Below, piece after piece: positions 1,022 to 12,966 of a stretch of 64,000 nt of DNA. A program made the translations under genes and the position numbers. Origin of the DNA: Escherichia typing phage 1; the sequence record KP869100; one strand, given 5' to 3'. The notes beneath the pieces are model-generated. The model made no database searches. It was given only the letters and a program-made list of their open reading frames with translations, and was not told where the DNA came from. Numbering within the stretch: position 1 is the stretch's first letter; every line of letters begins with the position of its first letter.

Positions 1022-2560
1022 TTTTTATAAAAATTTTATCGGTTGTTCCAACCTCTGGGTCACCATCATATGTGAATAAAATATCTATCCTTCTTAACAA
1101 CCTTCTTAATCTTACTCTCTATATATAGTTATATAGTACTATATAGTGTCTTAGTAACTATCTAGTGGTCTTAATAGCCCCTCTGTATAACCCTTCTAAA
1201 TAGCCCTCTAAACACTCTTCTAACAAGCCTTCTTAACAACCTATACAATCACCTTAACCATCTCTCTATACGCTCTTAGAAGCCTCTATACACCCCTTAA
1301 TCTCTATGTCAGCTATGATACTCTCTATAGGTGTTCACTAGGCACTACTAAGCCTCTATATAGACTGTTTTAACAAACTTAACAGGAATATCTTTACAGA
1401 CCTTATCTCACAAGGTCTAACACGGTACTAACAAGGTATCTTATAAGCCTGTTTCTACCTGTATTTTTAAAAGACTGTATAAGTAATTATTCAGAATTTT
1501 AAAATTTTTATAAAATAAGACTGTCAAGTCATTTTTTAGGGTCTTTGAAGGAACTCAAAAATATCTGTAGAAGATGTATATCTGCTTGGTAGCCCTTAAC
1601 AGCTCCCTTACAAGTACTTTGCAAAATTTTAAAATATCCTTAACAACATCTTAACAACTCTCTCAAGCTCTTAACATCTCTTCAAAGGTCTTAACAGTTT
1701 CTTAACAGAACTAACAAGAACTTAACAGTTTTCTAACAAGCTTTGGTAGGGCTTTACAGAATCTTAACAGATAACTAACAAGAGCTAACAAGTTAATTTT
1801 AAAGAGTTATTTTGTTAAGATAATTAACAAGTTCCTAACAAGTGTTTAATCTTTTTAACAAGCTATTAACATGGTCACTATCTCTTTTCTTATCGTTCCC
1901 TTTCTCTCTTAGTGATTCTCTAAACATACCTTTTAAAAGCTCTCTATAGCTCCTTGTAAGCTCTTTTAAGCCTCTTCCTAGTATCTACCCCTCAACTGTA
2001 TGGATAGCTCTTTATAGGGCTTTACAGGAGCTTTTAAGGCTATGTCAAAGGTTCTTACAAGGCTTTTACGTGGTCTTAACAGAGATTTAACAAGGGGCTA
2101 ACAAGTTGCTAACAAGTGCCTTAAAAGCATAACTATGTAGGGATTGTTAAGAAATTGTTAAGGGGGCTAGCATTTACGTAACTTTTAAGCTACTTCAAAG
2201 TAACTTTATAGCCCCTATAACATACTTTTAAGACACTAACAAGCCCTTTTTAGTAGTTCACAAGATAGCTAACGAGATGATAAAGCTCACACCCTTATAA
2301 GATTCTTTTAAGGCTCTAGAAAGCTCTATAAAGGGCTTTTTAGAGTGGGTTAATATGATTGCTTAAGTTAGGTTGATAAGGCTGTTATAGGGCTTTATAG
2401 AGCGTTTAAATGGTTGCCCTTCCCTTTCGGGTTATGGGCTTATATTTAAGTTGATTTGATAAGGGGTTATAGAGTAAGCTATAGAGTTATTGCTTTTAAG
2501 GTACGGGATAGATTCTAGGAAGGAAAGGAAAGGGATTGTATAGAGTCTCTTTATAGACGT
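1022..2560. repeat. non-coding repeat-dense region (oriented yTAACAr and CTATAG-type short repeats)
   Basis: No credible ORF; more than 25 same-orientation copies of CTTAACA/CTAACAAG-type cores, 15 of them within 1640-1880, plus many CTCTATAG/TTATAGGG copies; bounded by terminators. Confidence 0.7.
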
Positions 2561-2613
2561 AAAAAAGCCCCTATGAGAAGGAGCTTTTCAGGTATCTGGG
2601 GCTATTTAGCCCC
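2561..2613 (-). terminator. terminator region ending the long minus-strand transcription block
   Basis: AAAAAAGCCCC..GGAGCTTTT and GGGGCTATTTAGCCCC hairpins flanked by A/T runs, just downstream of the stop at 2624. Confidence 0.45.
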
Positions 2614-2623
2614 GCTGCGTCGA

Positions 2624-2872
2624 TTAGTTGTAACCTTGTTTGCTGTAGTACAGAGAGACAATCAAGTCACCCCAATAATGGTAGTGAGATTCCTCGTTTA
2701 TGGCTTCTTTTACGGCATCTTTCCAGAAGTCATCAGTAGGGTTATAATCTGGTATCACCTGCTGAATCAGCATTTTGATAAGGTCAAAGGTGTTATCTGT
2801 TCCACCGATATCGAATTTTGCATCAAGTTGGTGGCAGCCATAAGCATTAACAGTTACGCGGATAGTTGACAT
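2624..2872 (-). CDS. hypothetical small protein
   Basis: 82-aa ORF; start directly downstream of a type-A cassette SD. Confidence 0.5.
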   Translation of the reverse strand: MSTIRVTVNAYGCHQLDAKFDIGGTDNTFDLIKMLIQQVIPDYNPTDDFWKDAVKEAINEESHYHYWGDLIVSLYYSKQGYN

Positions 2873-2966
2873 AATTTAGAATCTCCAGTTTAGGACTTTA
2901 TTTAGTGGGGAAGGTCATTCCCTCCCCGTTGTTTAGTAATTTACTGCATATTGGCGTAGGTTGCAA
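2873..2966 (-). promoter_or_regulatory. type-A cassette A1 (promoter TTGCAA-N17-TAAATT + G/C hairpin + SD)
   Basis: -35 at 2961-2966 and -10 at 2938-2943 (minus strand), then CAACGGGGAGGGAATGACCTTCCCC leader and GGAGAT SD before the ATG at 2872. Confidence 0.55.
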
Positions 2967-3204
2967 GCCTTTTTTCGTTGTATTTTGTCAGAATTTCACA
3001 AGATAGAACATCGTACATTGTAACCGCTTTGCTTTTGTCGAGGTCAAAAAAGCCAAATGCTTTACCATCTTTGAATCCGACAACTTCGTAAGATTCTTTA
3101 ATGATTTCACCATTGAACAAATCACTTTCGATACGGTGAAACAACGCTACGTCTTCTTTGTCAGTTGCAATCTGCAATAGTGTGGTTAATTCTACGTGTT
3201 CCAT
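2941..3204 (-). CDS. hypothetical small protein
   Basis: Track ORF 2941..3309 trimmed to the ATG at 3202-3204 because the upstream part is occupied by cassette A2. Confidence 0.45.
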   Translation of the reverse strand: MEHVELTTLLQIATDKEDVALFHRIESDLFNGEIIKESYEVVGFKDGKAFGFFDLDKSKAVTMYDVLSCEILTKYNEKRLATYANMQ

Positions 3205-3297
3205 TTTTGAATCTCCTAGTTTAAGGACTTTACTTAGTGGGAAGGTTAATCCCTCCCCGTTGATTGACAATTTACAGACTTTTGATTGTCTCGTCAA
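3205..3297 (-). promoter_or_regulatory. type-A cassette A2 (TTGACG-N17-TAAATT + hairpin + SD)
   Basis: -35 at 3292-3297, -10 at 3269-3274 (minus strand), conserved leader and TAGGAGATTC SD. Confidence 0.55.
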
Positions 3298-3802
3298 TAT
3301 CTTTTTCAATATCTTTTAAAGTTTTTTCTAAGTTCTTGATATTGAAGGATAAGCCTTCACCGAGAGTCTTAGAATAACCGCTAGGACGTAAATCATAAAG
3401 GCCAATTTGTTCTACATTGGAGAGGTTGACCATTTCACCGCTTACATCATAAGCTATTGATACGGTGTTTTCAGGGGCTTTATAGAACTTGTTAAGATTC
3501 TTGATAGAACGTTCATAAGCCATTTTATAACCATTTAAAAGGTCTTTAACGTGGTTGCGAACGTTTTTACACTCATCTAAGTAAATACCTAAGAATAGCG
3601 GTAACAGTTCTGCTACAGCTTGCATAAAGTGAGATACTACAACAGTAGAAACATTACGACGATGTATATAATAAGCCCCGTTTTCTGATTTAGTGATAGT
3701 TGCAAAGTGTACACCGTTGCAACGAAATTCGAAGGTATCTTTAACGGGTTTAGTCATAACGTTAGATGAGCGAATGTAGTTGATAGCTTGAAACTTGTTC
3801 AT
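3272..3802 (-). CDS. hypothetical protein
   Basis: 176-aa ORF preceded by cassette A3; no recognised domain. Confidence 0.55.
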   Translation of the reverse strand: MNKFQAINYIRSSNVMTKPVKDTFEFRCNGVHFATITKSENGAYYIHRRNVSTVVVSHFMQAVAELLPLFLGIYLDECKNVRNHVKDLLNGYKMAYERSIKNLNKFYKAPENTVSIAYDVSGEMVNLSNVEQIGLYDLRPSGYSKTLGEGLSFNIKNLEKTLKDIEKDIDETIKSL

Positions 3803-3895
3803 TTTGAATCTCCTAGTTTAAGGACTTTACTTAGTGGGGAAGGTCATTCCCTCCCCGTTGTTTAGTACTATACTTGTTTTGATTTGCCTTTGCAA
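3803..3895 (-). promoter_or_regulatory. type-A cassette A3 (TTGCAA-N17-TATAGT + hairpin + SD)
   Basis: -35 at 3890-3895, -10 at 3867-3872 (minus strand), conserved GGGGAAGGTCATTCCCTCCCC hairpin and SD. Confidence 0.55.
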
Positions 3896-4023
3896 GCAAT
3901 TTTTTAAGTTTATCTATAAAGAATCTATTAAGTGAATCCCTTTTAGATAACCCCCTCGAACAAAGTTACCAATGTCAATGGGTATTGTCAACACTTTTTT
4001 AAAAGTTTTTTGTAAGTTATTGA

Positions 4024-4365
4024 TTAACTTATGAAGATTTTTTCAGGCTTTACATAGCTGATACGCTGACTTTTTAGCAGGTCATCCCAGATTAAAGCGG
4101 CAATATGTGCATAACCGGATTCACGTAAAAGCTTCATTGTTTTACTTCTCGTTTCAAAACGGCTTGCGTAGTATTCACTGTTCAAGGTCGTTTTATTCCC
4201 TTCGTTATCTGTATGGATGATTTGCATCACTTGAAAGGGGCTTACACCCTCGCCTTTGTTCCACTGTTCAAAGTATTTTAGGCACTGCATAGGTGACATC
4301 TTATCACTTACTTGAGTTGACCAAGATGAGCCAGCTTTATCGGTAATTACGGTTACATAAGCCAT
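4024..4365 (-). CDS. hypothetical protein
   Basis: 113-aa ORF; preceded by type-B cassette B1. Confidence 0.55.
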   Translation of the reverse strand: MAYVTVITDKAGSSWSTQVSDKMSPMQCLKYFEQWNKGEGVSPFQVMQIIHTDNEGNKTTLNSEYYASRFETRSKTMKLLRESGYAHIAALIWDDLLKSQRISYVKPEKIFIS

Positions 4366-4450
4366 TTTAGAATCTCCAGTTTAGGATTGAGTGGTAAAGC
4401 TCTTTATCTGGGGCTTACTATACAGACTAATAAGCCCCATGTAAAGTACT
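4366..4450 (-). promoter_or_regulatory. type-B cassette B1 (AAAGTACTTT palindrome + GGGGCTTA/TAAGCCCC hairpin + conserved leader + SD)
   Basis: Perfect 8-bp inverted repeat GGGGCTTA..TAAGCCCC at 4410-4438; leader AGATAAAGAGCTTTACCACTCAATCCTAAACTGGAGATTC precedes the ATG. Confidence 0.55.
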
Positions 4451-4699
4451 TTAAGCGTCTTTATATTCTATCTCTGTGCACTCACCTTTTACTAGCTCAA
4501 AGGTCCAAATAATTCGTTTATACTCAATCACTACTACAGTAACAAGGTCAGTCCTCTTCTCATTGGTTTTAAAGTCTATTGTGTGGGTATACTCATAACT
4601 AGTCTTATCCTTAATTTCCCCGTAGCGTCTACACTCTTTATAGACTTCATCCATTAAGCCATTGCTAACCATGTTTTTTAGTTGAGTTTTAGTATACAT
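4451..4699 (-). CDS. hypothetical small protein
   Basis: 82-aa ORF; preceded by cassette A4. Confidence 0.5.
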   Translation of the reverse strand: MYTKTQLKNMVSNGLMDEVYKECRRYGEIKDKTSYEYTHTIDFKTNEKRTDLVTVVVIEYKRIIWTFELVKGECTEIEYKDA

Positions 4700-4795
4700 T
4701 TTTTGGAATCTCCTAGTTTAAGGACTTTACTTAGTGGGGAAGGTCATTCCCTCCCCGTTGATTGATAATTTACAGACTTTTATCAGGCTTGTCTA
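4700..4795 (-). promoter_or_regulatory. type-A cassette A4 (TAGACA-N17-TAAATT + hairpin + SD)
   Basis: -35 at 4790-4795, -10 at 4767-4772 (minus strand), conserved hairpin and SD. Confidence 0.55.
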
Positions 4796-5026
4796 GTCTT
4801 TTTCAATGATAATTTCATATTGACCATCGACACTGTCGAAATAGATTCCTTCGTCATCTTCTGTCTTAAAGTAACATTGTATATCATCACTGGCGGGGTA
4901 GTCTTGTCTTGCTATCTGGCAAACTTGAATAGCATTTTCTTTACTTCCTGTAAACTCTTCAAGCCCTTTAAAGTCACATGAATGGCCGTTACAAATGGAA
5001 AGGATGAGATAAATGGTTGTAAGCAT
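4793..5026 (-). CDS. small protein with hydrophobic N-terminus (possibly secreted)
   Basis: 77-aa ORF; N-terminus MLTTIYLILSICNG is signal-peptide-like. Confidence 0.45.
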   Translation of the reverse strand: MLTTIYLILSICNGHSCDFKGLEEFTGSKENAIQVCQIARQDYPASDDIQCYFKTEDDEGIYFDSVDGQYEIIIEKD

Positions 5027-5036
5027 GATTTAAGCC

Positions 5037-5058
5037 CTCTAAAAGCCCCTGTAAGGGG
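5037..5058 (-). terminator. putative intrinsic terminator
   Basis: CCCCT-GTA-AGGGG hairpin followed on the minus strand by CTTTT, immediately after the stop at 5093. Confidence 0.4.
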
Positions 5059-5092
5059 TTAATCAGTGTTTATAAGGTGAATGTATAGGTTT

Positions 5093-5635
5093 TTAGAAAA
5101 AGACCTTTAAATCACTCTCTACAATGTTTTCTGTCAGTGTATCCATGATGTCACAAAAAACCTGAATACTGTCGGATTGTTGGATACTTTTAGCAAGTAG
5201 CTCCAATGTTTCATCAAGATAATTTAAATTTGGGTTATCCAGTGAAGGGAGACAAAAAGGTGAATACATAGCGTTGAACTCTGTTGTATAGACCTTTTTA
5301 ATCCAATTTACATCAAAGTACTCTGTAAAGCTTGCTATATTTGACATGTTATCACAAGAATAATCATCATTTAGCTCATCCTCTGGAATGTCAAGTTCTA
5401 AGATAACAATATTTTGAGTTTTCATCTGAAAAGCTGCCGTGATAGTGGCATTTCCTAGAGCTTGCTGGATACCTTCCGATGCTATCTCTTCCTCATCATC
5501 ACCATAGAGTTTATTTTCTGGGTACACGTAAAAATTGCCGTCCATATCCGAACAATTCCATACACCTGATGGTTTATCACCGTTATTAATCAGGTTAATA
5601 AAGTTTTCTTGAGTAGTACCGTGAAAGCATTTCAT
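5093..5635 (-). CDS. highly acidic protein (DNA-mimic-like composition)
   Basis: 180-aa ORF, very rich in D/E with few K/R (runs such as GDDEEEIASEG, DIPEDELNDD); preceded by cassette B2. Confidence 0.55.
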   Translation of the reverse strand: MKCFHGTTQENFINLINNGDKPSGVWNCSDMDGNFYVYPENKLYGDDEEEIASEGIQQALGNATITAAFQMKTQNIVILELDIPEDELNDDYSCDNMSNIASFTEYFDVNWIKKVYTTEFNAMYSPFCLPSLDNPNLNYLDETLELLAKSIQQSDSIQVFCDIMDTLTENIVESDLKVFF

Positions 5636-5742
5636 TTTGAATCTCCTAGTTTAAGGATTTAGTGGTAAAGCTCTTTATCTGGGGCTTACTTTATCGAACT
5701 ATAAGCCCCTTGTAAAGTACTTTATCAGTTAATTTTTGACAA
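5636..5742 (-). promoter_or_regulatory. type-B cassette B2 (TTGTCA-N17-TACTTT + hairpin + SD)
   Basis: -35 at 5737-5742, -10 at 5714-5719 (minus strand); GGGGCTTA..TAAGCCCC hairpin; conserved leader and SD. Confidence 0.55.
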
Positions 5743-5926
5743 CTTTTAAAACTGCAAGATAACCTAAGCAATAAGAATCACCGAAGAGAGTTCTACCCAT
5801 GAAAGAATCATCTTTGATATCCTTTGCAGTGACTGTTTTTTCTACGCCGTGGGAAAGAACTACATCACCAACTTTAATGTCTTTGATGTGCGTGGTTTCA
5901 ATGGTTAAACCGTTGATAATAGCCAT
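5729..5926 (-). CDS. hypothetical small protein
   Basis: 65-aa ORF; preceded by cassette A5. Confidence 0.45.
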   Translation of the reverse strand: MAIINGLTIETTHIKDIKVGDVVLSHGVEKTVTAKDIKDDSFMGRTLFGDSYCLGYLAVLKVVKN

Positions 5927-6020
5927 TTTGAATCTCCTAGTTTAAGGACTTTACTTAGTGGGGAAGGTCATTCCCTCCCCGTTGATGTGTAATTTAATCT
6001 ATCTAAAAATCAGTGTCAAT
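5927..6020 (-). promoter_or_regulatory. type-A cassette A5 (TTGACA-N17-TAAATT + hairpin + SD)
   Basis: -35 at 6015-6020, -10 at 5992-5997 (minus strand); promoter part identical to cassette A6. Confidence 0.6.
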
Positions 6021-6027
6021 AAAATTT

Positions 6028-6432
6028 TTAGAGTTCTGCATAAATTGCGTCGCAGATGTCACGAAAGTCATGATTTGCCAAATTACGTTGTAACCAAGTG
6101 GCAAAGAAATCAGCGATTGCAAAATTAGCATCATACTCAACAGATAGCCACACTTTCACGGCAAATCTAAACATTTTCAAGTCTAACTCTTTATTCATTA
6201 CCTTAGATTTGCCTAACATGTCGACCATTTCATATTGTGCACCGTCTAGCGTGATACCTGCTGCAACGTCAGCCAATGAGTTTTTTACGTTTTCAACGTC
6301 TAAGATAACGCTTTGAATCTTTCCGATAATGTTGTGCAATGTTTCATCCGGTGCTGATGATGTAATAACATTGATTCGATTAACGGTTAAACGTGCTTTT
6401 AAGATTGACAACTCACGATTATTAATAGCCAT
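6028..6432 (-). CDS. hypothetical protein
   Basis: 134-aa ORF; preceded by cassette B3. Confidence 0.55.
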   Translation of the reverse strand: MAINNRELSILKARLTVNRINVITSSAPDETLHNIIGKIQSVILDVENVKNSLADVAAGITLDGAQYEMVDMLGKSKVMNKELDLKMFRFAVKVWLSVEYDANFAIADFFATWLQRNLANHDFRDICDAIYAEL

Positions 6433-6517
6433 TTTAGAATCTCCAATTTAGGATTGAGTGGTAAAGCTCTTTATCTGGGGCTTACTGTACAGACTAATAA
6501 GCCCCCTGTAAAGTACT
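6433..6517 (-). promoter_or_regulatory. type-B cassette B3
   Basis: GGGGCTTA..TAAGCCCC hairpin, AAAGTACTTT palindrome, conserved leader and SD. Confidence 0.5.
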
Positions 6518-6790
6518 TTATACTAAATGCAGTTTTTTACCTTTTACTATGATGTAACTTGATGTGCTATTGCTACATACATCCTGATAAATTCTGCGCA
6601 AACGTCCTTCATAGTATACTTTCCAGCTAGTTGGAATCTTTTTGCCGTATCCGGTAGCAGTTTTTTGGAGTCCTGCGACTTGCCAATCTAAGATATGTTG
6701 CTCAGCCTGTAAATCCTCAAAGTGCATCACACCGTCTACATAGTGACGTAGAGTGACATTTAAAGTGCGACCGTTGTTAGTAGTATACAT
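6518..6790 (-). CDS. hypothetical small protein
   Basis: 90-aa ORF; preceded by cassette A6. Confidence 0.5.
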   Translation of the reverse strand: MYTTNNGRTLNVTLRHYVDGVMHFEDLQAEQHILDWQVAGLQKTATGYGKKIPTSWKVYYEGRLRRIYQDVCSNSTSSYIIVKGKKLHLV

Positions 6791-6883
6791 TTTAGAATCT
6801 CCTAGTTTAAGGACTTTATTTAGTGGGGTGTTTATTGCCTCCCCGTTGATGTGTAATTTAATCTATCTAAAAATCAGTGTCAA
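6791..6883 (-). promoter_or_regulatory. type-A cassette A6 (TTGACA-N17-TAAATT + variant hairpin + SD)
   Basis: -35 at 6878-6883, -10 at 6855-6860 (minus strand); hairpin interior differs from other A copies but the GGGG/CCCC stem is kept. Confidence 0.55.
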
Positions 6884-7212
6884 CAGTTTTGTTTTCGTTT
6901 GCTCAACTCTTGAACAATTACAGTATGATAGTCTTTTAAGTCACTAATATTTAAAGCATTTATCAGAGAATTATAATCATCGACTAATTGAAAATCATCT
7001 TTGAAAATGTCGCTGATTTGATAAGTTCTCGCCCTGAATCTGAAGCTCATTTCTAACCGCTTTAATTGTTCATCGCTCAACCGCTCTAGAAAGCTCATTA
7101 CAAGGCTATTGCTAACCTGTTGTGTGATTGCCTTATTTGCTAGATTATAGGCTTTATATGCCTTATAGAGCGCGAAAATGGCAATGATTGCAGTGATACC
7201 AGTCATTAACAT
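6880..7212 (-). CDS. small membrane-anchored protein
   Basis: 110-aa ORF; N-terminal hydrophobic segment GITAIIAIFALY. Confidence 0.45.
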   Translation of the reverse strand: MLMTGITAIIAIFALYKAYKAYNLANKAITQQVSNSLVMSFLERLSDEQLKRLEMSFRFRARTYQISDIFKDDFQLVDDYNSLINALNISDLKDYHTVIVQELSKRKQNC

Positions 7213-7502
7213 GGTGCTTCCTCTTTACGTGATACTTTGCCATTTACAGTTATCTCATAAGAATCTAGTAAATCGCTTTTAGATTTGACAGGACTTTTAA
7301 GAGTATCATCATAGATATTAACTTGCAATACAGGTTTTTTATACTCCCTGCAACTATTCCATAAGCAAATCACTACACGACGACCTTTTATTTTGCCGTG
7401 TAACCATTCCATAACATCATGGCTATTTCTTGATGTTTCAATGAAATCAATTTTGTTGAGTAATTTGCTTAGATTTTCACGAACTTTATTTGATAATTTC
7501 AT
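7206..7502 (-). CDS. hypothetical small protein
   Basis: 98-aa ORF; preceded by cassette B4; 7-nt overlap with the downstream gene. Confidence 0.5.
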   Translation of the reverse strand: MKLSNKVRENLSKLLNKIDFIETSRNSHDVMEWLHGKIKGRRVVICLWNSCREYKKPVLQVNIYDDTLKSPVKSKSDLLDSYEITVNGKVSRKEEAPC

Positions 7503-7590
7503 TTTTGAATCTCCAGTTTAGGATTGAGTGGTAAAGCTCTTTATCTGGGGCTTAAGATACCAACTTTTAAGCCCCTTGTAAAGTACTTTA
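7503..7590 (-). promoter_or_regulatory. type-B cassette B4
   Basis: 9-bp inverted repeat GGGGCTTAA..TTAAGCCCC; palindrome and conserved leader/SD. Confidence 0.5.
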
Positions 7591-7881
7591 TCAGTTAATT
7601 TTCAGCTTTGCATAACCTCTCATTGTACGAATTGGAGATGTTAAGGCTACGCGTCTAATATATGCCTTTTTCGTGTATACATTTGTCTTTCCGATAGTGT
7701 TTACACATGTAAAAAGATTTATTGGTGAATTTTTTAACTTCAACTGTTTATCAGCCTTCACACCCCATCTTACAGCAGATTGTTTTCCGTTGTCAACCAC
7801 TTTCCCGCCTAACTTTTTCGCCATGATGCGAGCGTCATCACGAGTTTTTACAGGAATTACAACGTTTTTGATAGTAGCCAT
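7591..7881 (-). CDS. hypothetical small basic protein
   Basis: 96-aa ORF, Lys/Arg-rich; preceded by cassette B5. Confidence 0.5.
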   Translation of the reverse strand: MATIKNVVIPVKTRDDARIMAKKLGGKVVDNGKQSAVRWGVKADKQLKLKNSPINLFTCVNTIGKTNVYTKKAYIRRVALTSPIRTMRGYAKLKIN

Positions 7882-7969
7882 TTTTGAATCTCCAATTTAG
7901 GATTTAGTGGTAAAGCTCTTTATCTGGGGCTTACTTTATCGAACTATAAGCCCCTTGTAAAGTACTTTA
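7882..7969 (-). promoter_or_regulatory. type-B cassette B5
   Basis: Near-identical to B2 (same hairpin GGGGCTTACTTTATCGAACTATAAGCCCC). Confidence 0.5.
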
Positions 7970-8350
7970 TCAGTTAATTTTGAAGATTGTTACATAACCA
8001 TCACTACCGATTATTTGAGACACTCCAGCTTTTTCTACTTGATAGCCCATATTTTCAAGATGATAAACAGCATCATCGTAACCATATGCGCCACCCTGAT
8101 AACGTCTCTTATCGCATCTTATCAGGTTTTTACCACGTCCAGCAAGTGCATGTAAAATGGCTTTTTCACTTGAAAGAGTACCATCTAGCATTGTCGCCGT
8201 GTAATGGTTAATTTTATTCCCATTGATATCATACTTAAAATTAAACGAGTGAACAACAATAACGTTACCTTTAAAATTCTCATCAAGTGACTTCTCCAGT
8301 GCGTTGCGAAAGTTGTCTTTGTTGATGAATTTAGGTGCACGATATGCCAT
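7970..8350 (-). CDS. hypothetical protein
   Basis: 126-aa ORF; preceded by cassette B6; no recognised domain. Confidence 0.5.
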   Translation of the reverse strand: MAYRAPKFINKDNFRNALEKSLDENFKGNVIVVHSFNFKYDINGNKINHYTATMLDGTLSSEKAILHALAGRGKNLIRCDKRRYQGGAYGYDDAVYHLENMGYQVEKAGVSQIIGSDGYVTIFKIN

Positions 8351-8441
8351 TTTTGAATCTCCTAGTTTAAGGGTTGATTTGGTAAAGCTCTTTATCTGGG
8401 GCTTAAGATATCAGCTTTTAAGCCCCTTGTAAAGTACTTTA
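8351..8441 (-). promoter_or_regulatory. type-B cassette B6
   Basis: GGGGCTTAA..TTAAGCCCC hairpin; palindrome; conserved leader/SD. Confidence 0.5.
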
Positions 8442-8648
8442 TTAGGCATCGTAGTAATAAACTGCTGTCTGTCTTATGTACTTTCTTGTATTTCTTGTAA
8501 GGTAGCAATTAGAGTTTATAGCTGTTTCTACATAGTTGCAATAGTCAGCCTCTGATATTCTAGACCATGCGCCACATACTTGCATGTAAAAACGTTTTAC
8601 CTTTGTGTTAACGTTAGTTGTAACCATCAATTCACGACTATAAAGCAT
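8442..8648 (-). CDS. hypothetical small protein
   Basis: 68-aa ORF downstream of the promoter at 8698-8726. Confidence 0.4.
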   Translation of the reverse strand: MLYSRELMVTTNVNTKVKRFYMQVCGAWSRISEADYCNYVETAINSNCYLTRNTRKYIRQTAVYYYDA

Positions 8649-8697
8649 TTTCGATTCTCCAGTTTAGGAAGTGGGCTTGCTTGCCCGTCTGATGCAA

Positions 8698-8726
8698 ATA
8701 GTACGTAAACTTGTTTGGCGTGTCAA
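8698..8726 (-). promoter_or_regulatory. sigma70-like promoter TTGACA-N17-TACTAT
   Basis: -35 (rc TGTCAA) at 8721-8726, -10 (rc ATAGTA) at 8698-8703, 17-nt spacer; followed by a short hairpin and GGAGAA SD. Confidence 0.5.
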
Positions 8727-8894
8727 CGGTTTTTATTAAATATTTTTTGTAAGGTTGGGAAATGAACGGGCGCGCACGACTACCACAAAACAGAACACAA
8801 ATCAAGAATTATTTTTCAACCCGCTACAAATTTTTCTCTTGACTTTTGGGGAGAGGTGGAGTAAGAGGGGGAGAGGGGTTGGTCTGGCTCTCTA

Positions 8895-9090
8895 TAAAAA
8901 CCTACCTGCACGATTCTAAAATGATTTTTCTTGCCCGACCTGAGCGGGGTCTGCACGTTTTGAAAATGAAAAAGCTCTTTGGAGATTACCTGCACAGTTT
9001 GAAAATGAATTTTCTCTTTGGAGTTCAAAATTCTCTCTACAGATTTCTCTACAGAACTCTACCTGCACAATCCTGAAATGAAAAAGCCCT
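8895..9090. repeat. four direct repeats (CCTGCAC-N-TGAAAATGA) in a GC-richer non-coding island
   Basis: acctgcacgattctaaaatga, tctgcacgttttgaaaatga, acctgcacagtttgaaaatga, acctgcacaatcctgaaatga; surrounding G-rich tract ggggagaggtggagtaagagggggagagggg. Confidence 0.6.
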
Positions 9091-9154
9091 CCTTACCTGA
9101 AAAATTTACCAGATAAAGAAGGCTTAGTCTATTGTGAATATTATACAGAGTTTC

Positions 9155-9940
9155 TTAGTTCTTTGCGTCTAAGAAGGTAACTTCTGGTGAAGAGAAGACC
9201 GTCTCGATATCCTCATCAGTTCTTGCATAAATATATGTATCTGCATCACTGCCAAATGTTACGGCTATCCTGTGATTGCTCTTCGACAGGTGGGTAACTA
9301 GAGCGTTACTTAGAGACATCTTCTCAACCGGAGGGTTACTTTGATGTATCTTACCTTTTCTTCGTCTGAAGAGGGTAACTGTATCATCTTTGAACGTTAC
9401 TACACCTGCAAAGTATTCTGGTTCACAGTAGTTATTCCAACCTGAGCGTAACTTGTGGTACATCTCTCCTTCGTAGACATACAGATAAACATCTACACTC
9501 TTCATCACCTGATTAATGATAACTGTGACGGCTTGAGGGTCAAGTCCACCGATACCTGCACCAATCATAGGTAAACCAACCTTCTTCAACTGATTAACTT
9601 CACAGTATCTGTTAAGCTGTTTCAAAGATGACTCTAAAGCACTGTATCGGGCATCTTTACCAGTCTTAAGCTGAGTGTAAAGGTTAGCTATACGACCTTG
9701 TTTTAAACGTGCTACAGAGAAATTACCCAGTAAATTTTCACAGGGTTTGTGTCCTATACCACCTGCATACAGATAAACTTCTGTATCGGTCTCATATGCT
9801 TTTGGGTAAAGTTTAGAAATCTTGTCAGCGATACCTGCACCCATTAAATTCATACAGTTGCAACCGTGACCGATGATGTCAAACTTACCTTTATCAAATG
9901 CGGCAAAGATATCACCATTAATTATTTTTACAATACCCAT
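9155..9940 (-). CDS. macro-domain protein (ADP-ribose binding/processing) with about 90-aa C-terminal extension
   Basis: 261 aa; GDIFAAF..FDIIGHGCNCMNLMGAGIA and GLPMIGAGIGGL resemble the two macro-domain signature blocks. Confidence 0.55.
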   Translation of the reverse strand: MGIVKIINGDIFAAFDKGKFDIIGHGCNCMNLMGAGIADKISKLYPKAYETDTEVYLYAGGIGHKPCENLLGNFSVARLKQGRIANLYTQLKTGKDARYSALESSLKQLNRYCEVNQLKKVGLPMIGAGIGGLDPQAVTVIINQVMKSVDVYLYVYEGEMYHKLRSGWNNYCEPEYFAGVVTFKDDTVTLFRRRKGKIHQSNPPVEKMSLSNALVTHLSKSNHRIAVTFGSDADTYIYARTDEDIETVFSSPEVTFLDAKN

Positions 9941-10361: not shown

Positions 10362-10701
10362 AGTTTACCTTCTCAGTTAGCTCATATAAATCAACATGCT
10401 CAATACTATCAATGTTGATATCAATCTTTTTGAAGCGTTCTATCACTTCGTTGTCAGTCATCCATATCAGACACCAATGATTCTGAATGGATTCTTCAAG
10501 AAGGTCAACACAATCTTTAAAAGTTTTTGTATCACTTCTCGTTCCAACTACTGCGATTGTTCCATATAGCCACCCACCATTGCCATAAGATACTTGCGCT
10601 ACGCCAACTTCTTTACCTTTCTCGTAGTAAACGGCTACAAAGTCTCTTCCATTAATCTGCATTTGTAAGTTCCTCTGTTGGTAATTCACCATTTTCAGCA
10701 A
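10336..10701 (-). CDS. hypothetical protein
   Basis: 121-aa ORF; start uncertain (internal Met at 10662 possible). Confidence 0.45.
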   Translation of the reverse strand: MLKMVNYQQRNLQMQINGRDFVAVYYEKGKEVGVAQVSYGNGGWLYGTIAVVGTRSDTKTFKDCVDLLEESIQNHWCLIWMTDNEVIERFKKIDINIDSIEHVDLYELTEKVNYESNSSQR

Positions 10702-10966: not shown

Positions 10967-11235
10967 TTCCTCGTTTTAAGAACTGCTAAGATTTCTTTAG
11001 AGTCTGGTAGGAACCATGTGTAGTGATTCTCTTTGATTTCTGGATGAGTGTCAACCTTTATTTTGCACTCTTTACCAACATGCTTAAGCTGTGCTGTGAT
11101 ACCTTGCATAAAGATGTGACACATTACATTATCCATAATCGTAGGTAAGAAATCAATCCTCATGTAAGTATCTTTCGGTCTCGGTAGAAGTAAGTAACCT
11201 TCTGTGTAGAAAGTTTCATCATTACTTTGTGTCAT
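10963..11235 (-). CDS. hypothetical protein
   Basis: 90-aa ORF; ATGA-type overlap with the upstream gene. Confidence 0.45.
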   Translation of the reverse strand: MTQSNDETFYTEGYLLLPRPKDTYMRIDFLPTIMDNVMCHIFMQGITAQLKHVGKECKIKVDTHPEIKENHYTWFLPDSKEILAVLKTRK

Positions 11236-11501
11236 TACTGCTTATTCCCTAATAAAATCATATCAATCAAGTTGTTAGCTTTCATAGTACACTGATAGTA
11301 CCCGTCACGATAAAACTCAAGGGCTTCTGATAAGTCTGCACCAGTGTTACCTTTGACAGCATATCTTACATCTTCCTGAGTGTACTTATCACTTTCACTT
11401 ACTTGGGAGTTTTTGAATGTATTGCTCACTTTGTTCGTTGAACACCCTGACATAGTTATCAGTAACACAAACATTATAAAACTCTGGCTTAGTCTTTTCA
11501 T
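11235..11501 (-). CDS. lipoprotein (outer-membrane spanin candidate)
   Basis: 88 aa; signal MKRLSQSFIMFVLLITMSGC with a lipobox-like Cys; overlaps the 3' end of the upstream membrane protein in another frame, as in Rz/Rz1. Confidence 0.4.
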   Translation of the reverse strand: MKRLSQSFIMFVLLITMSGCSTNKVSNTFKNSQVSESDKYTQEDVRYAVKGNTGADLSEALEFYRDGYYQCTMKANNLIDMILLGNKQ

Positions 11502-12274: not shown

Positions 12275-12966
12275 TGTTTAACTAACATAGTTTTAATGTG
12301 TGGAAGGATTCTGTTTACCTTCTGAACATTATTCTCTGTATCTTCTATAAAGCATACTATATTAAAGTAAGGAAGAATGCAAGACTGAATCATCCTCACT
12401 TTCAAACTTTCTGCACTTATAGAGTTAGTTCCAAAACCACGCATAAAAAGCAAGTAATCATGCTCTATATTGTGCCTTAAAAACATCTCAGTAGGTATTC
12501 TCTGAGATTCACCTCTTGCTGTCAAGAGTCCAACTGCTGCATGATTTGCAATTGCATCAATAATGTTGAAAACATATGTTGGCTTTGCTCTTACAGAATC
12601 AAGAAGATTAGTGTACTGTGAGAATGAACCATCAGTCAATTCCGTTGAGCAATCTTCGTGATTAAAATTTGTAAGAACACCATCAATATCTGCTAAGATG
12701 AGGTTACCTTTTTCTACAAGGTCTTTATTGACTATGACTAAACTATCGCGCCTTACACCTATAGTTTGTCCAGTCTCTTTGTCCACAACGTTCACAATTG
12801 GTTCTGATGTGTGGAACTCTTCCAGTGAACATACAACTTCTCTTGCAGTGTCTTCAAAATCCCTACACTGTTCTGGAGTCCATACACAGGAATCAAGACC
12901 TAACTCATGAGGATGTAAGTCATAAGCGTGGCACAGGACTTCATCAGACTTTTTTAATTTTTTCAT
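12271..12966 (-). CDS. HAD-superfamily phosphatase-like protein
   Basis: 231 aa; LILADIDGVLTNF matches HAD motif I (DxDGVL). Confidence 0.45.
   Translation of the reverse strand: MKKLKKSDEVLCHAYDLHPHELGLDSCVWTPEQCRDFEDTAREVVCSLEEFHTSEPIVNVVDKETGQTIGVRRDSLVIVNKDLVEKGNLILADIDGVLTNFNHEDCSTELTDGSFSQYTNLLDSVRAKPTYVFNIIDAIANHAAVGLLTARGESQRIPTEMFLRHNIEHDYLLFMRGFGTNSISAESLKVRMIQSCILPYFNIVCFIEDTENNVQKVNRILPHIKTMLVKH

Follow-up and report, generated by a model that had tools for sequence, protein, structure and literature searches.

PeSL (promoter-early stem-loop) elements are known from the T4-like phages RB49/phi1, T4/PST and KVP40/nt-1 (Arbiol et al. 2010, PMC2839356; Comeau et al. 2014, PMC4122927). 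They combine a sigma-70 promoter with a Gn-loop-Cn stem-loop, mostly positioned between the -35 and -10 boxes or over the -10, end at their 3' side in a Shine-Dalgarno (SD) sequence and ATG, and are located in hyperplastic regions (PMC2839356). For T4/PST the consensus TTTACW-N17-TAYWAT was reported (PMC4122927). In the papers on phage Felix O1, the elements analysed here (type B) are recorded merely as "direct repeats". Judged by analogy, they match the PeSL promoter/stem-loop cassettes, previously described in T4-like phages only; they are helpful for annotation and are not a new kind of system.

The window, a stretch of 64,000 nucleotides from Escherichia typing phage 1 (KP869100), represents a Felixounavirus that shares 99.5% identity with E. 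coli O157 typing phage 15; the minus strand is the coding strand for the genes in the region of the type-B cassettes. The pattern GGGGCTTA-N13-TAAGCCCC was found six times in the window (4410-4438, 5681-5709, 6477-6505, 7547-7575, 7926-7954 and 8398-8426), with 0 matches expected by chance, and the exact palindrome AAAGTACTTT also occurs six times, each at the identical cassette offset. A single family (D1) with six members of about 103 nt each was returned by the repeat finder, no additional strong sense-strand copy was revealed by nhmmer over the window, and the closest genome holds six type-B places in total. The cassettes are restricted to the small-ORF array downstream of the macro-domain gene, and blastn detected no similarity to them outside the Ounavirinae. 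The six repeats, all present as an earlier sequence-only reading had described them, are confirmed as genuine cassettes between the genes of a Felix O1-like phage, and that reading's proposal of repeated regulatory cassettes upstream of genes is also supported. On the minus strand, each copy shows the order upstream stop codon, (T)AAAGTACTTTACA, hairpin, AGATAAAGAGCTTTACC..., GGAG, 7-8 nt and ATG; the distance from GGAGATTC to ATG is 4-5 nt, and not 1 nt as given in that reading. The features of the array are as follows.

4363..4453, minus strand: B1 cassette, stop TAA 4451-4453 to ATG 4363-4365 of gene 4024..4365; SD GGAG 4374-4377, 8 nt from ATG
4417..4445, minus strand: B1 predicted sigma-70 promoter, -35 TTTACA 4440-4445, 17-nt spacer, -10 TATAGT 4417-4422; predicted +1 C/A 4410/4409
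4394..4453, minus strand: B1 extended inverted repeat, TAAAGT.CTTTA...GGGGCTTA[loop]TAAGCCCC...TAAAG.GCTTTA; inner arms 4431-4438, 4410-4417; MFE -31.1 kcal/mol, z -4.6
5633..5731, minus strand: B2 cassette, stop TAA 5729-5731 to ATG of gene 5093..5635; SD GGAG 5643-5646
5688..5716, minus strand: B2 predicted promoter, TTTACA-17-TAAAGT; predicted +1 near 5681/5680
5665..5724, minus strand: B2 extended inverted repeat, inner arms 5702-5709, 5681-5688; MFE -26.2 kcal/mol, z -4.1
6430..6520, minus strand: B3 cassette, stop TAA 6518-6520 to ATG of gene 6028..6432; SD GGAG 6441-6444
6484..6512, minus strand: B3 predicted promoter, TTTACA-17-TACAGT; predicted +1 near 6477/6476
6461..6520, minus strand: B3 extended inverted repeat, inner arms 6498-6505, 6477-6484
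7500..7593, minus strand: B4 cassette, stop TGA 7591-7593 to ATG of gene 7206..7502; SD GGAG 7511-7514
7554..7582, minus strand: B4 predicted promoter, TTTACA-17-(TGg)TATCTT, extended -10; predicted +1 near 7547/7546
7531..7590, minus strand: B4 extended inverted repeat, inner arms 7568-7575, 7547-7554, 9 bp; MFE -24.8 kcal/mol, z -2.8
7879..7972, minus strand: B5 cassette, stop TGA 7970-7972 to ATG of gene 7591..7881; SD GGAG 7890-7893
7933..7961, minus strand: B5 predicted promoter, TTTACA-17-TAAAGT; predicted +1 near 7926/7925
7910..7969, minus strand: B5 extended inverted repeat, inner arms 7947-7954, 7926-7933
8348..8444, minus strand: B6 cassette, stop TAA 8442-8444 to ATG of gene 7970..8350; SD GGAG 8359-8362
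8405..8433, minus strand: B6 predicted promoter, TTTACA-17-(TGa)TATCTT, extended -10; predicted +1 near 8398/8397
8382..8441, minus strand: B6 extended inverted repeat, inner arms 8419-8426, 8398-8405, 9 bp; MFE -24.3 kcal/mol, z -3.2
5926..6019, minus strand: type-A cassette (context), TTGACA-17-TAAATT, 10 nt, hairpin GGGGAGGGAATGACCTTCCCC, common SD module
~2875-2957, 3206-3284, 3803-3895, 4702-4795, 6792-6883: other type-A copies
8649..8726, minus strand: third-type cassette, first of the array (context), TTGACA-17-TACTAT, hairpin GGGCAAGCAAGCCC, same SD module CCTAAACTGGAGAATC

The conservation pattern was determined from an alignment of 60 type-B copies, 40 of them distinct, which were taken from the window and from 10 loci belonging to Felixounavirus, Mooglevirus, Kolesnikvirus and one unclassified ounavirus. 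An independent IMG/VR set, retrieved by a pattern with the loop unspecified, yielded 44 new distinct cores; the pooled distinct copies (n=83) come from four Ounavirinae genera. All six window copies carry TTTACA, 17 nt and TAnnnT. In the 60-copy alignment (40 distinct), information reaches 2.0 bits at every base of the -35 and at the hexamer's T, A and last T, and 0.07-0.34 bits at its three middle bases. These T, A ... T loop/arm positions, 17-18 nt downstream of TTTACA, are invariant in 40/40 distinct copies; 11 hexamer variants occur among them, every one TAnnnT, and the spacer measures 17 nt in 39 of the 40. The IMG/VR cores show TAnnnT at 17-18 nt in 43 of 44 cases and add five hexamers, while TG is present at -15/-14 in 45 of the 83 pooled copies. 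The hexamer occupies the 3' part of the hairpin loop, a loop that had been described as variable; its sequence does differ among copies, but the 3' part is always TAnnnT and not free. Taken together, the type-B cassette most likely contains a host-type sigma-70 promoter within a conserved hairpin, with the predicted start just past the hairpin. RT-PCR of Felix O1 placed ORFs 16 and 20 in the class peaking at 5 min (PMC3185647), and these are the genes directly downstream of its two 57-bp B repeats. Counting against a promoter, the -10 hexamers agree with TATAAT at just 3-5 of 6 positions, the discriminator AAGCCCC is G+C-rich, and promoter-like matches are common in this A+T-rich DNA (32 vs 21.9 ± 4.9 in shuffles). 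Part of the conservation of TTTACA and of the last hexamer T could be structural, as both are also helix positions. Like the T4 early promoters of the UP/-35/TGn/-10 class (Hinton 2010, PMC2988021), the cassettes are predicted to use unmodified host sigma-70 RNA polymerase, frequently show a TGn extended -10 and have A/T-rich DNA upstream of the -35, but their -10 departs more from TATAAT, their discriminator is rich in G+C and the putative promoter is embedded in an inverted repeat.

The hairpin is real, and the alignment supports selection of its stem for pairing, as the sequence-only reading had proposed for the stem structure. In the alignment 94% of the inner-helix cells are paired, and all shuffle and slide controls score below the real alignment. 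A compensatory change from GGGG/CCCC to GGTG/CACC (G-C to U-A) is found in Erwinia phages, and an alternative stem, GGGG(C/T)TATC/GATAGCCCC, is present in relatives. Two window copies (B4 and B6, inner arms 9 bp) have a 9-bp stem and an 11-nt loop; loop length varies by ±1 among copies. The perfect hairpin noted earlier is present in the window copies, but it is really the top of an interrupted helix of about 20 bp, in which the fold reaches 20 pairs, laid out as 6 + 5 + 9 pairs with one 1x1 and one 3x3 internal loop. What had been called the "conserved leader", AGATAAAGAGCTTTA, extends the helix by pairing with the palindrome region; the palindrome supplies the 5' arm of this outer helix, its TAAAG-nn-CTTTA being paired with TAAAG-ag-CTTTA further downstream. 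Pairing in the outer helix amounts to 96%, and columns 5/56 show a compensatory G-C to U-A change. A U·G pair occupies arm position 5 in 20 of the 40 distinct copies, in every case with U·G in the sense orientation; read on the antisense strand, the two recurrent U·G pairs would be A·C mismatches, and the sense strand gives the better fold in 28/40 copies. Similar to an intrinsic terminator, the G+C-rich stem-loop directly follows a gene, but it differs in having no U-tract after it on the coding (sense) strand, and 0/6 type-B hairpins were flagged by the terminator scan. Hence, PeSL-like terminator activity is not predicted from the sequence.

The best explanation, to which we assign a probability of roughly 0.7, is that the type-B repeat is a composite intergenic expression cassette that works like the PeSL of T4-like phages. 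It occupies the entire space between one small early gene's stop codon and the ATG of the gene that follows. Its first part would be a host sigma-70 promoter (-35 TTTACA, 17-nt spacer, often TGn, -10 TAnnnT in the loop), the hairpin arms forming the spacer and the G+C-rich discriminator and the predicted start lying at C/A directly after the 3' arm. The second would be the interrupted inverted repeat of about 20 bp, with outer arms that coincide with the UP/-35 region and the first ~15 transcribed bases. It would fold only in sense RNA reading through from an upstream promoter, where its most likely effect is to attenuate read-through or to protect or process the upstream message at its 3' end. 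Next would come a leader of about 45 nt that is unstructured and has GGAG 7-8 nt ahead of ATG, and as a fourth part the ~90 bp of repeated homology may act as a crossover point for gain, loss or swap of small early genes. The cassettes share with PeSL the (here predicted) sigma-70 promoter, the Gn-loop-Cn between -35 and -10 or over the -10, the 3' SD, the occurrence in many copies, restricted to a hyperplastic region with small orphan early genes, and the bounding of indels between relatives, including chimeric elements. They differ in lineage (Ounavirinae, Felix O1-like, not T4-like) and in that the stem-loop tops a 20-bp interrupted helix to which the -35 region and the earliest transcribed bases also contribute. 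Experiments on RB49/phi1 have demonstrated promoter, terminator and mini-circle activities; for type B, promoter activity is predicted from conservation.

In a model built on the sequence-only reading, AAAGTACTTT would bind a dimeric regulator and overlap a -10 TACTTT, with a start upstream and the hairpin as a 5' leader structure. This is now very improbable. The palindrome is indeed perfect in 6/6 window copies, but comparison with related phages showed that it is not conserved as a symmetric site: 18/40 distinct relatives have G, C or T in place of its central A (0.5 bit), so that TACTTT becomes TGCTTT, TCCTTT or TTCTTT and the essential A at position 2 of the -10 is lost. The TTGTCA reported as the -35 of B2 does lie 17 nt upstream of TACTTT, but in that copy only and within upstream coding sequence; in the other 5/6 copies the position holds unrelated coding sequence and no -35. 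The invariant T, A ... T of the loop would be left unexplained, and the palindrome is already accounted for as the outer-helix arm. Moreover, transcripts from the predicted cassette promoter would begin past the hairpin, which would therefore not be a 5' leader structure of the cassette's own mRNA. An antisense terminator, in which the hairpin followed by TTGTAAAGTACTTTAT on the plus strand stops antisense transcription from the convergent gene block, is scarcely credible, even though annotation software marked one wV8 B hairpin, and likewise KhF3 hairpins at type-A cassette positions, as rho-independent on the antisense strand, and the B4 plus strand folds strongly (-37.2 kcal/mol). Just two U directly follow the stem, the consensus scan makes no call, the recurrent U·G pairs turn into A·C mismatches with an antisense fold less stable in 28/40 copies, and neither promoter signature nor SD module is explained.

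It is unlikely, too, that the arms GGGGCTTA/TAAGCCCC, ~21 bp centre to centre, are half-sites of a dimeric phage protein that would cover spacer, -10 and +1 and switch off all cassette promoters jointly, as an early shut-off, RNA pairing being incidental. The inverted repeat is centred on the predicted -10 and spacer, a classical operator geometry, arm conservation is far above the needs of a promoter spacer, and the symmetric GGTG/CACC change fits half-site co-evolution; symmetric two-arm changes are also expected of a co-evolving dimeric operator. However, arm position 5 breaks the symmetry in half of the distinct copies, always with the sense-strand U·G, arm sequence and length differ by subtype in one genome (in Mordin, GGGGTTATC/GATAGCCCC vs GGGGTTTA/TAAGCCCC), loop length shifts by ±1, and no candidate repressor was identified. 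The early genes of T7 have RNase III processing hairpins in between, and these sites have no promoter. The type-B elements resemble them in being irregular RNA helices of ~20 bp that lie between the cistrons of a polycistronic early transcript and contain an internal loop, and differ by their predicted promoter and by sister type-A stems of just 8 bp. An RNA-only element of this kind, a processing or stability signal with the loop bases as recognition determinants, would agree with the 6 + 5 + 9 pairs and their 1x1 and 3x3 loops, the high pairing with some covariation, the G·U pairs favouring sense RNA and the location exactly between cistrons. It is nevertheless distinctly unlikely, since TAnnnT at exactly 17-18 nt from TTTACA and the TG enrichment at -15/-14 are unexplained, and the interleaved type-A cassettes, with the same positional role, have a hairpin of 8 bp, below the length that RNase III needs. 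Only in a "no promoter" version is the RNA-only element a rival; a processing role fits the hairpin part of the composite expression cassette.

With regard to module exchange, relatives differ in gene content by cassette-bounded units. Ends of homology blocks fall within cassettes ±15 nt in 57/69 cases (18/25 distinct), against a cassette share of 24% of the region (p about 7e-7); a crude test of gene adjacency gave no significant result (p = 0.33). In AN17P8, a chimeric B cassette joins g11 to g6, and the cassette ahead of g17 is of type A in Felix O1 and of type B here, the switch lying within the common SD module. Recombination would take place inside the cassettes rather than merely adjacent to them. 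Module boundaries are expected in intergenic DNA regardless, and here intergenic DNA is nearly all cassette.

On the strand antisense to the genes only, GCTCTTTA, the boxA core of lambda-type nut sites, is located 4 nt before the hairpin. A lambda-type nut site (boxA + boxB) was rejected, GCTCTTTA being merely the complement of the 3' outer arm TAAAGAGC and the type-B loop being of 11-13 nt and not a GNRA-like pentaloop. In the nearby gap 5027-5092, a terminator-like canonical hairpin, CCCCTTACAGGGG, is followed by CTTTT, and the equivalent hairpin is annotated as a terminator in wV8.

Over positions 3800-9000 the window showed 99.5% identity to E. coli O157 typing phage 15 and 99.2% to phage wV8, both members of the genus Felixounavirus, i.e. 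Felix O1-like myoviruses. The ORF map and the deposited annotations show an array of closely packed small genes along the minus strand of this region, with flanking genes annotated as hypothetical, so the cassettes have to be read on the window's reverse complement. Three types of cassette were distinguished in the array:

4363-8444, minus strand: six type-B cassettes (B1-B6), each upstream of one small early gene
5926-6019, minus strand: an example of the interleaved type-A family, TTGACA-17-TAAATT plus hairpin
8649-8726, head of the array: third cassette type, TTGACA-17-TACTAT, hairpin GGGCAAGCAAGCCC and the SD module (ribosome-binding segment) common to A and B

The array head is arranged differently in wV8, which is without the downstream 207-bp gene. 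The wV8 record labels these elements DR_1 to DR_9, and in the Felix O1 genome paper no function is given for either type, B appearing simply as a "57 bp direct repeat" and A as a "39 bp repeat"; the passage of transcription through the many hairpins and the existence of secondary promoters are stated there as not known. In the open-access literature, neither a paper treating these Felix O1-like repeats as promoters or as PeSLs (promoter-early stem-loop cassettes of T4-like phages) nor a Felixounavirus transcript-mapping study was found. The B cassette was not found by blastn in 5,426 E. coli genomes, and a host REP-like repeat is therefore ruled out. Rfam 15 gave no relevant family at E ≤ 1 in 2500-9500 and zero matches at the gathering score over the whole window; at that threshold the 64-kb stretch is thus without tRNA genes, about 22 of which are typical of these phages.

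The repeat finder returned one six-member family of about 103 nt, and the inverted repeat GGGGCTTA-N-TAAGCCCC, which the sequence-only reading had claimed for six copies, was found six times, with 0 expected by chance. Read along the coding strand, a copy consists of a stop codon, (T)AAAGTACTTTACA, hairpin, AGATAAAGAGCTTTACC, about 15 nt, GGAG, 7-8 nt and ATG. The earlier description of the cassette was thus accurate except for the spacing of the SD to the start codon. Each B copy occupies the entire gap between two genes with a cassette length of 91-99 nt, the upstream stop codon lying 0-7 nt before TAAAGTAC or overlapping it. The inner stem, GGGGCTTA(A)/(T)TAAGCCCC, brackets the spacer and the -10 element of a predicted promoter.

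A consensus scan placed this sigma-70-like site in all six window copies. The predicted -35 is TTTACA, part of ACTTTACA, and is followed after a spacer of 17 nt by a predicted -10 (TATAGT, TAAAGT, TACAGT or TATCTT) in the 3' part of the loop, so that its final T opens the 3' arm. The loop, previously described as variable, is not freely so, its 3' part being TAnnnT throughout. Since promoter-like matches are common in this A+T-rich DNA (32 found versus about 22 expected), the site was tested by conservation, using 60 sense-strand copies (40 distinct) collected by nhmmer from the window and ten loci (Felix O1, Mordin, Sf17, KMM2, SflM_004, KhF3, ECML-1, AN17P8, SeBD_211 and Erwinia phage M7). 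The TTTACA bases and the T, A and final T of the hexamer were invariant in 40/40 distinct copies (2.0 bits), and the three middle hexamer bases carried 0.07-0.34 bits. Eleven hexamer variants were present, every one of them TAnnnT, with a 17-nt spacer in 39/40 distinct copies. The result was replicated in IMG/VR with a search pattern of fixed flanks only and an unspecified loop: 43 of 44 new distinct cores had TAnnnT at 17-18 nt, with five additional hexamer variants, on contigs all 54-94 kb and mostly 84-94 kb in length, which is the Ounavirinae genome size. TG at -15/-14, the signature of an extended -10 (element classes according to PMC2988021), was found in 45 of 83 distinct copies.

With TTTACA-17/18-TAnnnT, the B cassettes would qualify as PeSL-type sigma-70 early promoters. 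The predicted start is the C/A directly 3' of the hairpin's 3' arm, 7-8 nt past the loop hexamer (4409/10, 5680/81, 6476/77, 7546/47, 7925/26 and 8397/98 in the window), giving a leader of about 45 nt. By RT-PCR, ORFs 16 and 20 of Felix O1 are among the genes peaking at 5 min (PMC3185647); both are located directly downstream of its two B repeats. Two other placements of the promoter were rejected. For a TAAAGT situated 10 nt before the hairpin, like the type-A TAAATT, no -35 exists at a suitable distance, its fifth-position G is T in some relatives, and the hexamer in the loop is the better match. If GCTTTAC-11 nt-TAAACT were read like a MotA box, the start would land in or past the SD.

The exact palindrome AAAGTACTTT was present in every copy (6 occurrences, constant offset), and had been proposed as a symmetric regulator site overlapping a -10 of TACTTT. 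Its central A is replaced by G, C or T in 18/40 distinct relatives (0.5 bit), therefore symmetry is not maintained, and the proposed -10 reads TGCTTT, TCCTTT or TTCTTT in relatives. The accompanying -35, TTGTCA, occurs in B2 only, inside the upstream coding sequence. In foldings the hairpin continues outward, TAAAGU.CUUUA pairing with the downstream UAAAG.GCUUUA. AGATAAAGAGCTTTA, which had been called a conserved leader, thus forms the 3' side of an interrupted helix about 20 bp long. As TAAAG-nn-CTTTA is self-complementary, two direct copies also form an inverted repeat, and the palindrome is explained as an arm of the outer helix.

That the stem is under selection for structure was supported. 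In the inner helix 94% of cells are paired, with compensatory changes from G-C to U-A (GGTG/CACC in Erwinia phages), an alternative stem GGGG(C/T)TATC/GATAGCCCC among the copies and U·G pairing in half the distinct ones; every shuffle and slide control scored below the real alignment. The outer helix has 96% of cells paired, and its columns 5/56 show a compensatory change in three distinct sequences, with three others unpaired. Fold energies range from -24 to -31 kcal/mol (z -2.8 to -4.6). Two recurrent U·G pairs become A·C mismatches on the opposite strand, and the sense strand folds better than the antisense strand in 28/40 copies. The U·G pairs and the folding bias favour a structure in the sense RNA; the plus strand of some window copies also folds well, in a different register.

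The earlier proposal of regulatory cassettes with a selected hairpin therefore stands, while the position of the promoter and the role of the palindrome had been misplaced. A promoter inside the hairpin, in the manner of a PeSL, is the reading that we prefer, with a probability of about 0.7; an RNA-only processing site and a symmetric operator covering the promoter are its chief remaining competitors. The geometry of 20 pairs in 3 segments is compatible with the irregular dsRNA cut by RNase III, as the former would have it. The arms are conserved far beyond the needs of spacer and discriminator, so promoter and helix both appear to be selected. A further, quite improbable possibility is that the inverted repeat, besides forming an RNA hairpin in read-through transcripts, acts as a DNA-level switch within the promoter, in which supercoil-driven cruciform extrusion, or a phage protein on the arms or the extruded hairpin, would gate all early cassettes together; the -10 would then be in the loop, with spacer and discriminator as arms of the extruded hairpin. 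If true, host RNA polymerase would here be serving a promoter class that depends on structure. Phage N4 has hairpin promoters, to which such an arrangement bears a loose resemblance.

Under the promoter-in-hairpin reading, a transcript from the cassette's own promoter would lack the 5' arms, so the helix would fold solely in read-through RNA from upstream promoters. No U-tract follows the stem on the coding strand, where the sequence is AGAUAAAGAGC, and a terminator scan called 0/6 B hairpins as intrinsic terminators. Candidate roles for the hairpin would be attenuation, protection of upstream 3' ends or RNase III-type processing. In type-A cassettes the hairpin is just 8 bp long, includes G·U pairing and lies 10 nt past the -10, which argues for a role within reach of a simple stable GGGG...CCCC hairpin.

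In deposited records, one B hairpin of wV8 (1603-1647) and hairpins at type-A position in KhF3 (7716-7736, 10366-10386, 11231-11251 and 12790-12810) are annotated as rho-independent terminators on the strand opposite the genes, probably a software artefact of the inverted repeat. Annotators should be cautious not to call B hairpins antisense terminators. The plus strand of every B cassette (4394-4409 and equivalents) also carries GCTCTTTA, 4 nt before the hairpin, which matches the boxA core exactly. The motif is complementary to the 3' outer arm and lies antisense to the genes, so the likeness is probably coincidental; an antisense boxA/nut reading was rejected as being on the wrong strand.

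Gene clustering across eleven loci showed a conserved block from rIIA to the macro-domain gene without cassettes, and all cassette copies in the array downstream of it, where an A or B cassette precedes each small ORF or ORF pair and gene content varies between relatives in cassette-bounded units. A Fisher test on gene adjacency (variable junction versus presence of a cassette) was not significant (p = 0.33); this test is crude, with noise from singletons, from ORF calling on one strand and from the rearrangement of the Erwinia locus, and was replaced by a breakpoint test at the nucleotide level. Of the blastn homology-block ends, 57/69 (18/25 distinct) fell within cassettes ±15 nt, which make up 24% of the array (p about 7e-7), an enrichment to be read with the caveat that block boundaries are expected in intergenic DNA regardless of cassettes. 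AN17P8 has a single, chimeric B cassette between genes g11 and g6, the left part matching the window cassette between g11 and g12 and the right side continuing into g6. Upstream of gene g17 there is an A cassette in Felix O1 and a B cassette in the window; the switch from one to the other lies within the SD module that both types have, CCT(T)AAAC(T)(A)GGAGATTC. Citrobacter phage Mordin carries two tandem B cassettes without an ORF between them (8481-8634), joined at a CTTTAC microhomology present twice per cassette; this may have been left by illegitimate recombination or by the excision of a gene.

PeSLs have the SD and start codon at their 3' end and are found in hyperplastic regions, where they mediate the shuffling of ORFans (PMC2839356); the T4/PST consensus is TTTACW-N17-TAYWAT (PMC4122927). 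[quoted passage not shown] All sequence-level features of a PeSL are present. Promoter and terminator/attenuator activity and mini-circle formation have been demonstrated for the PeSLs of RB49/phi1, the promoter of the B cassettes being predicted from sequence. The B cassettes have a longer composite helix and belong to Ounavirinae instead of T4-like myoviruses. Blastn of the cassette matched records whose names refer to Felixounavirus or to phages of Escherichia, Salmonella, Shigella, Citrobacter and Erwinia, together with one Staphylococcus-, one Campylobacter- and one other-named record; every record fetched from the former set was Ounavirinae, with no similarity detected there outside the subfamily. 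The cassettes are therefore regarded as analogous to PeSLs, a homology not being demonstrable from these comparisons.

The promoter-in-hairpin reading would supply about a dozen candidate early promoters per genome, with precise start-site predictions, in a phage group widely used for typing and biocontrol. It would account for the mosaic early region among otherwise near-identical phages. Modular shuffling of the PeSL type would then occur outside the T4-like phages too, in a myovirus subfamily unrelated to them, which suggests a general route by which lytic phages may trade small host-takeover genes along with the signals for their expression.

Other non-coding features were observed in the early region. 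The gap at 5027-5092, between genes 5093-5635 and 4793-5026, is one of the few intergenic gaps of the array without a promoter cassette; it contains a canonical sense-strand terminator-like hairpin, CCCCTTACAGGGG, then CTTTT, and its wV8 equivalent is annotated as a terminator. A non-coding gap of 506 nt separates the macro-domain gene from the first cassette gene; in it, 8730-9154 holds four minus-strand copies of approximately TCATTTTCAAAnnGTGCAGGTA (D6 family) and a C/T-rich tract, CCAACCCCTCTCCCCCTCTTACTCCACCTCTCCCC, and a strong terminator hairpin (9084-9125) comes before them. Between the end of the minus-strand early array and convergent genes, about 1.5 kb (1100-2560) is without ORFs. 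Of the 94 YTAACAR heptamers in the window, 28 lie within 1094-2242, 25 of these on the plus strand and often 11 nt apart (1691/1702/1711/1722/1733 and 2076/2087/2098/2109). The region is also rich in CTCTATA and CTATATAG motifs, and resembles an array of iterons or protein-binding sites that may be an origin.
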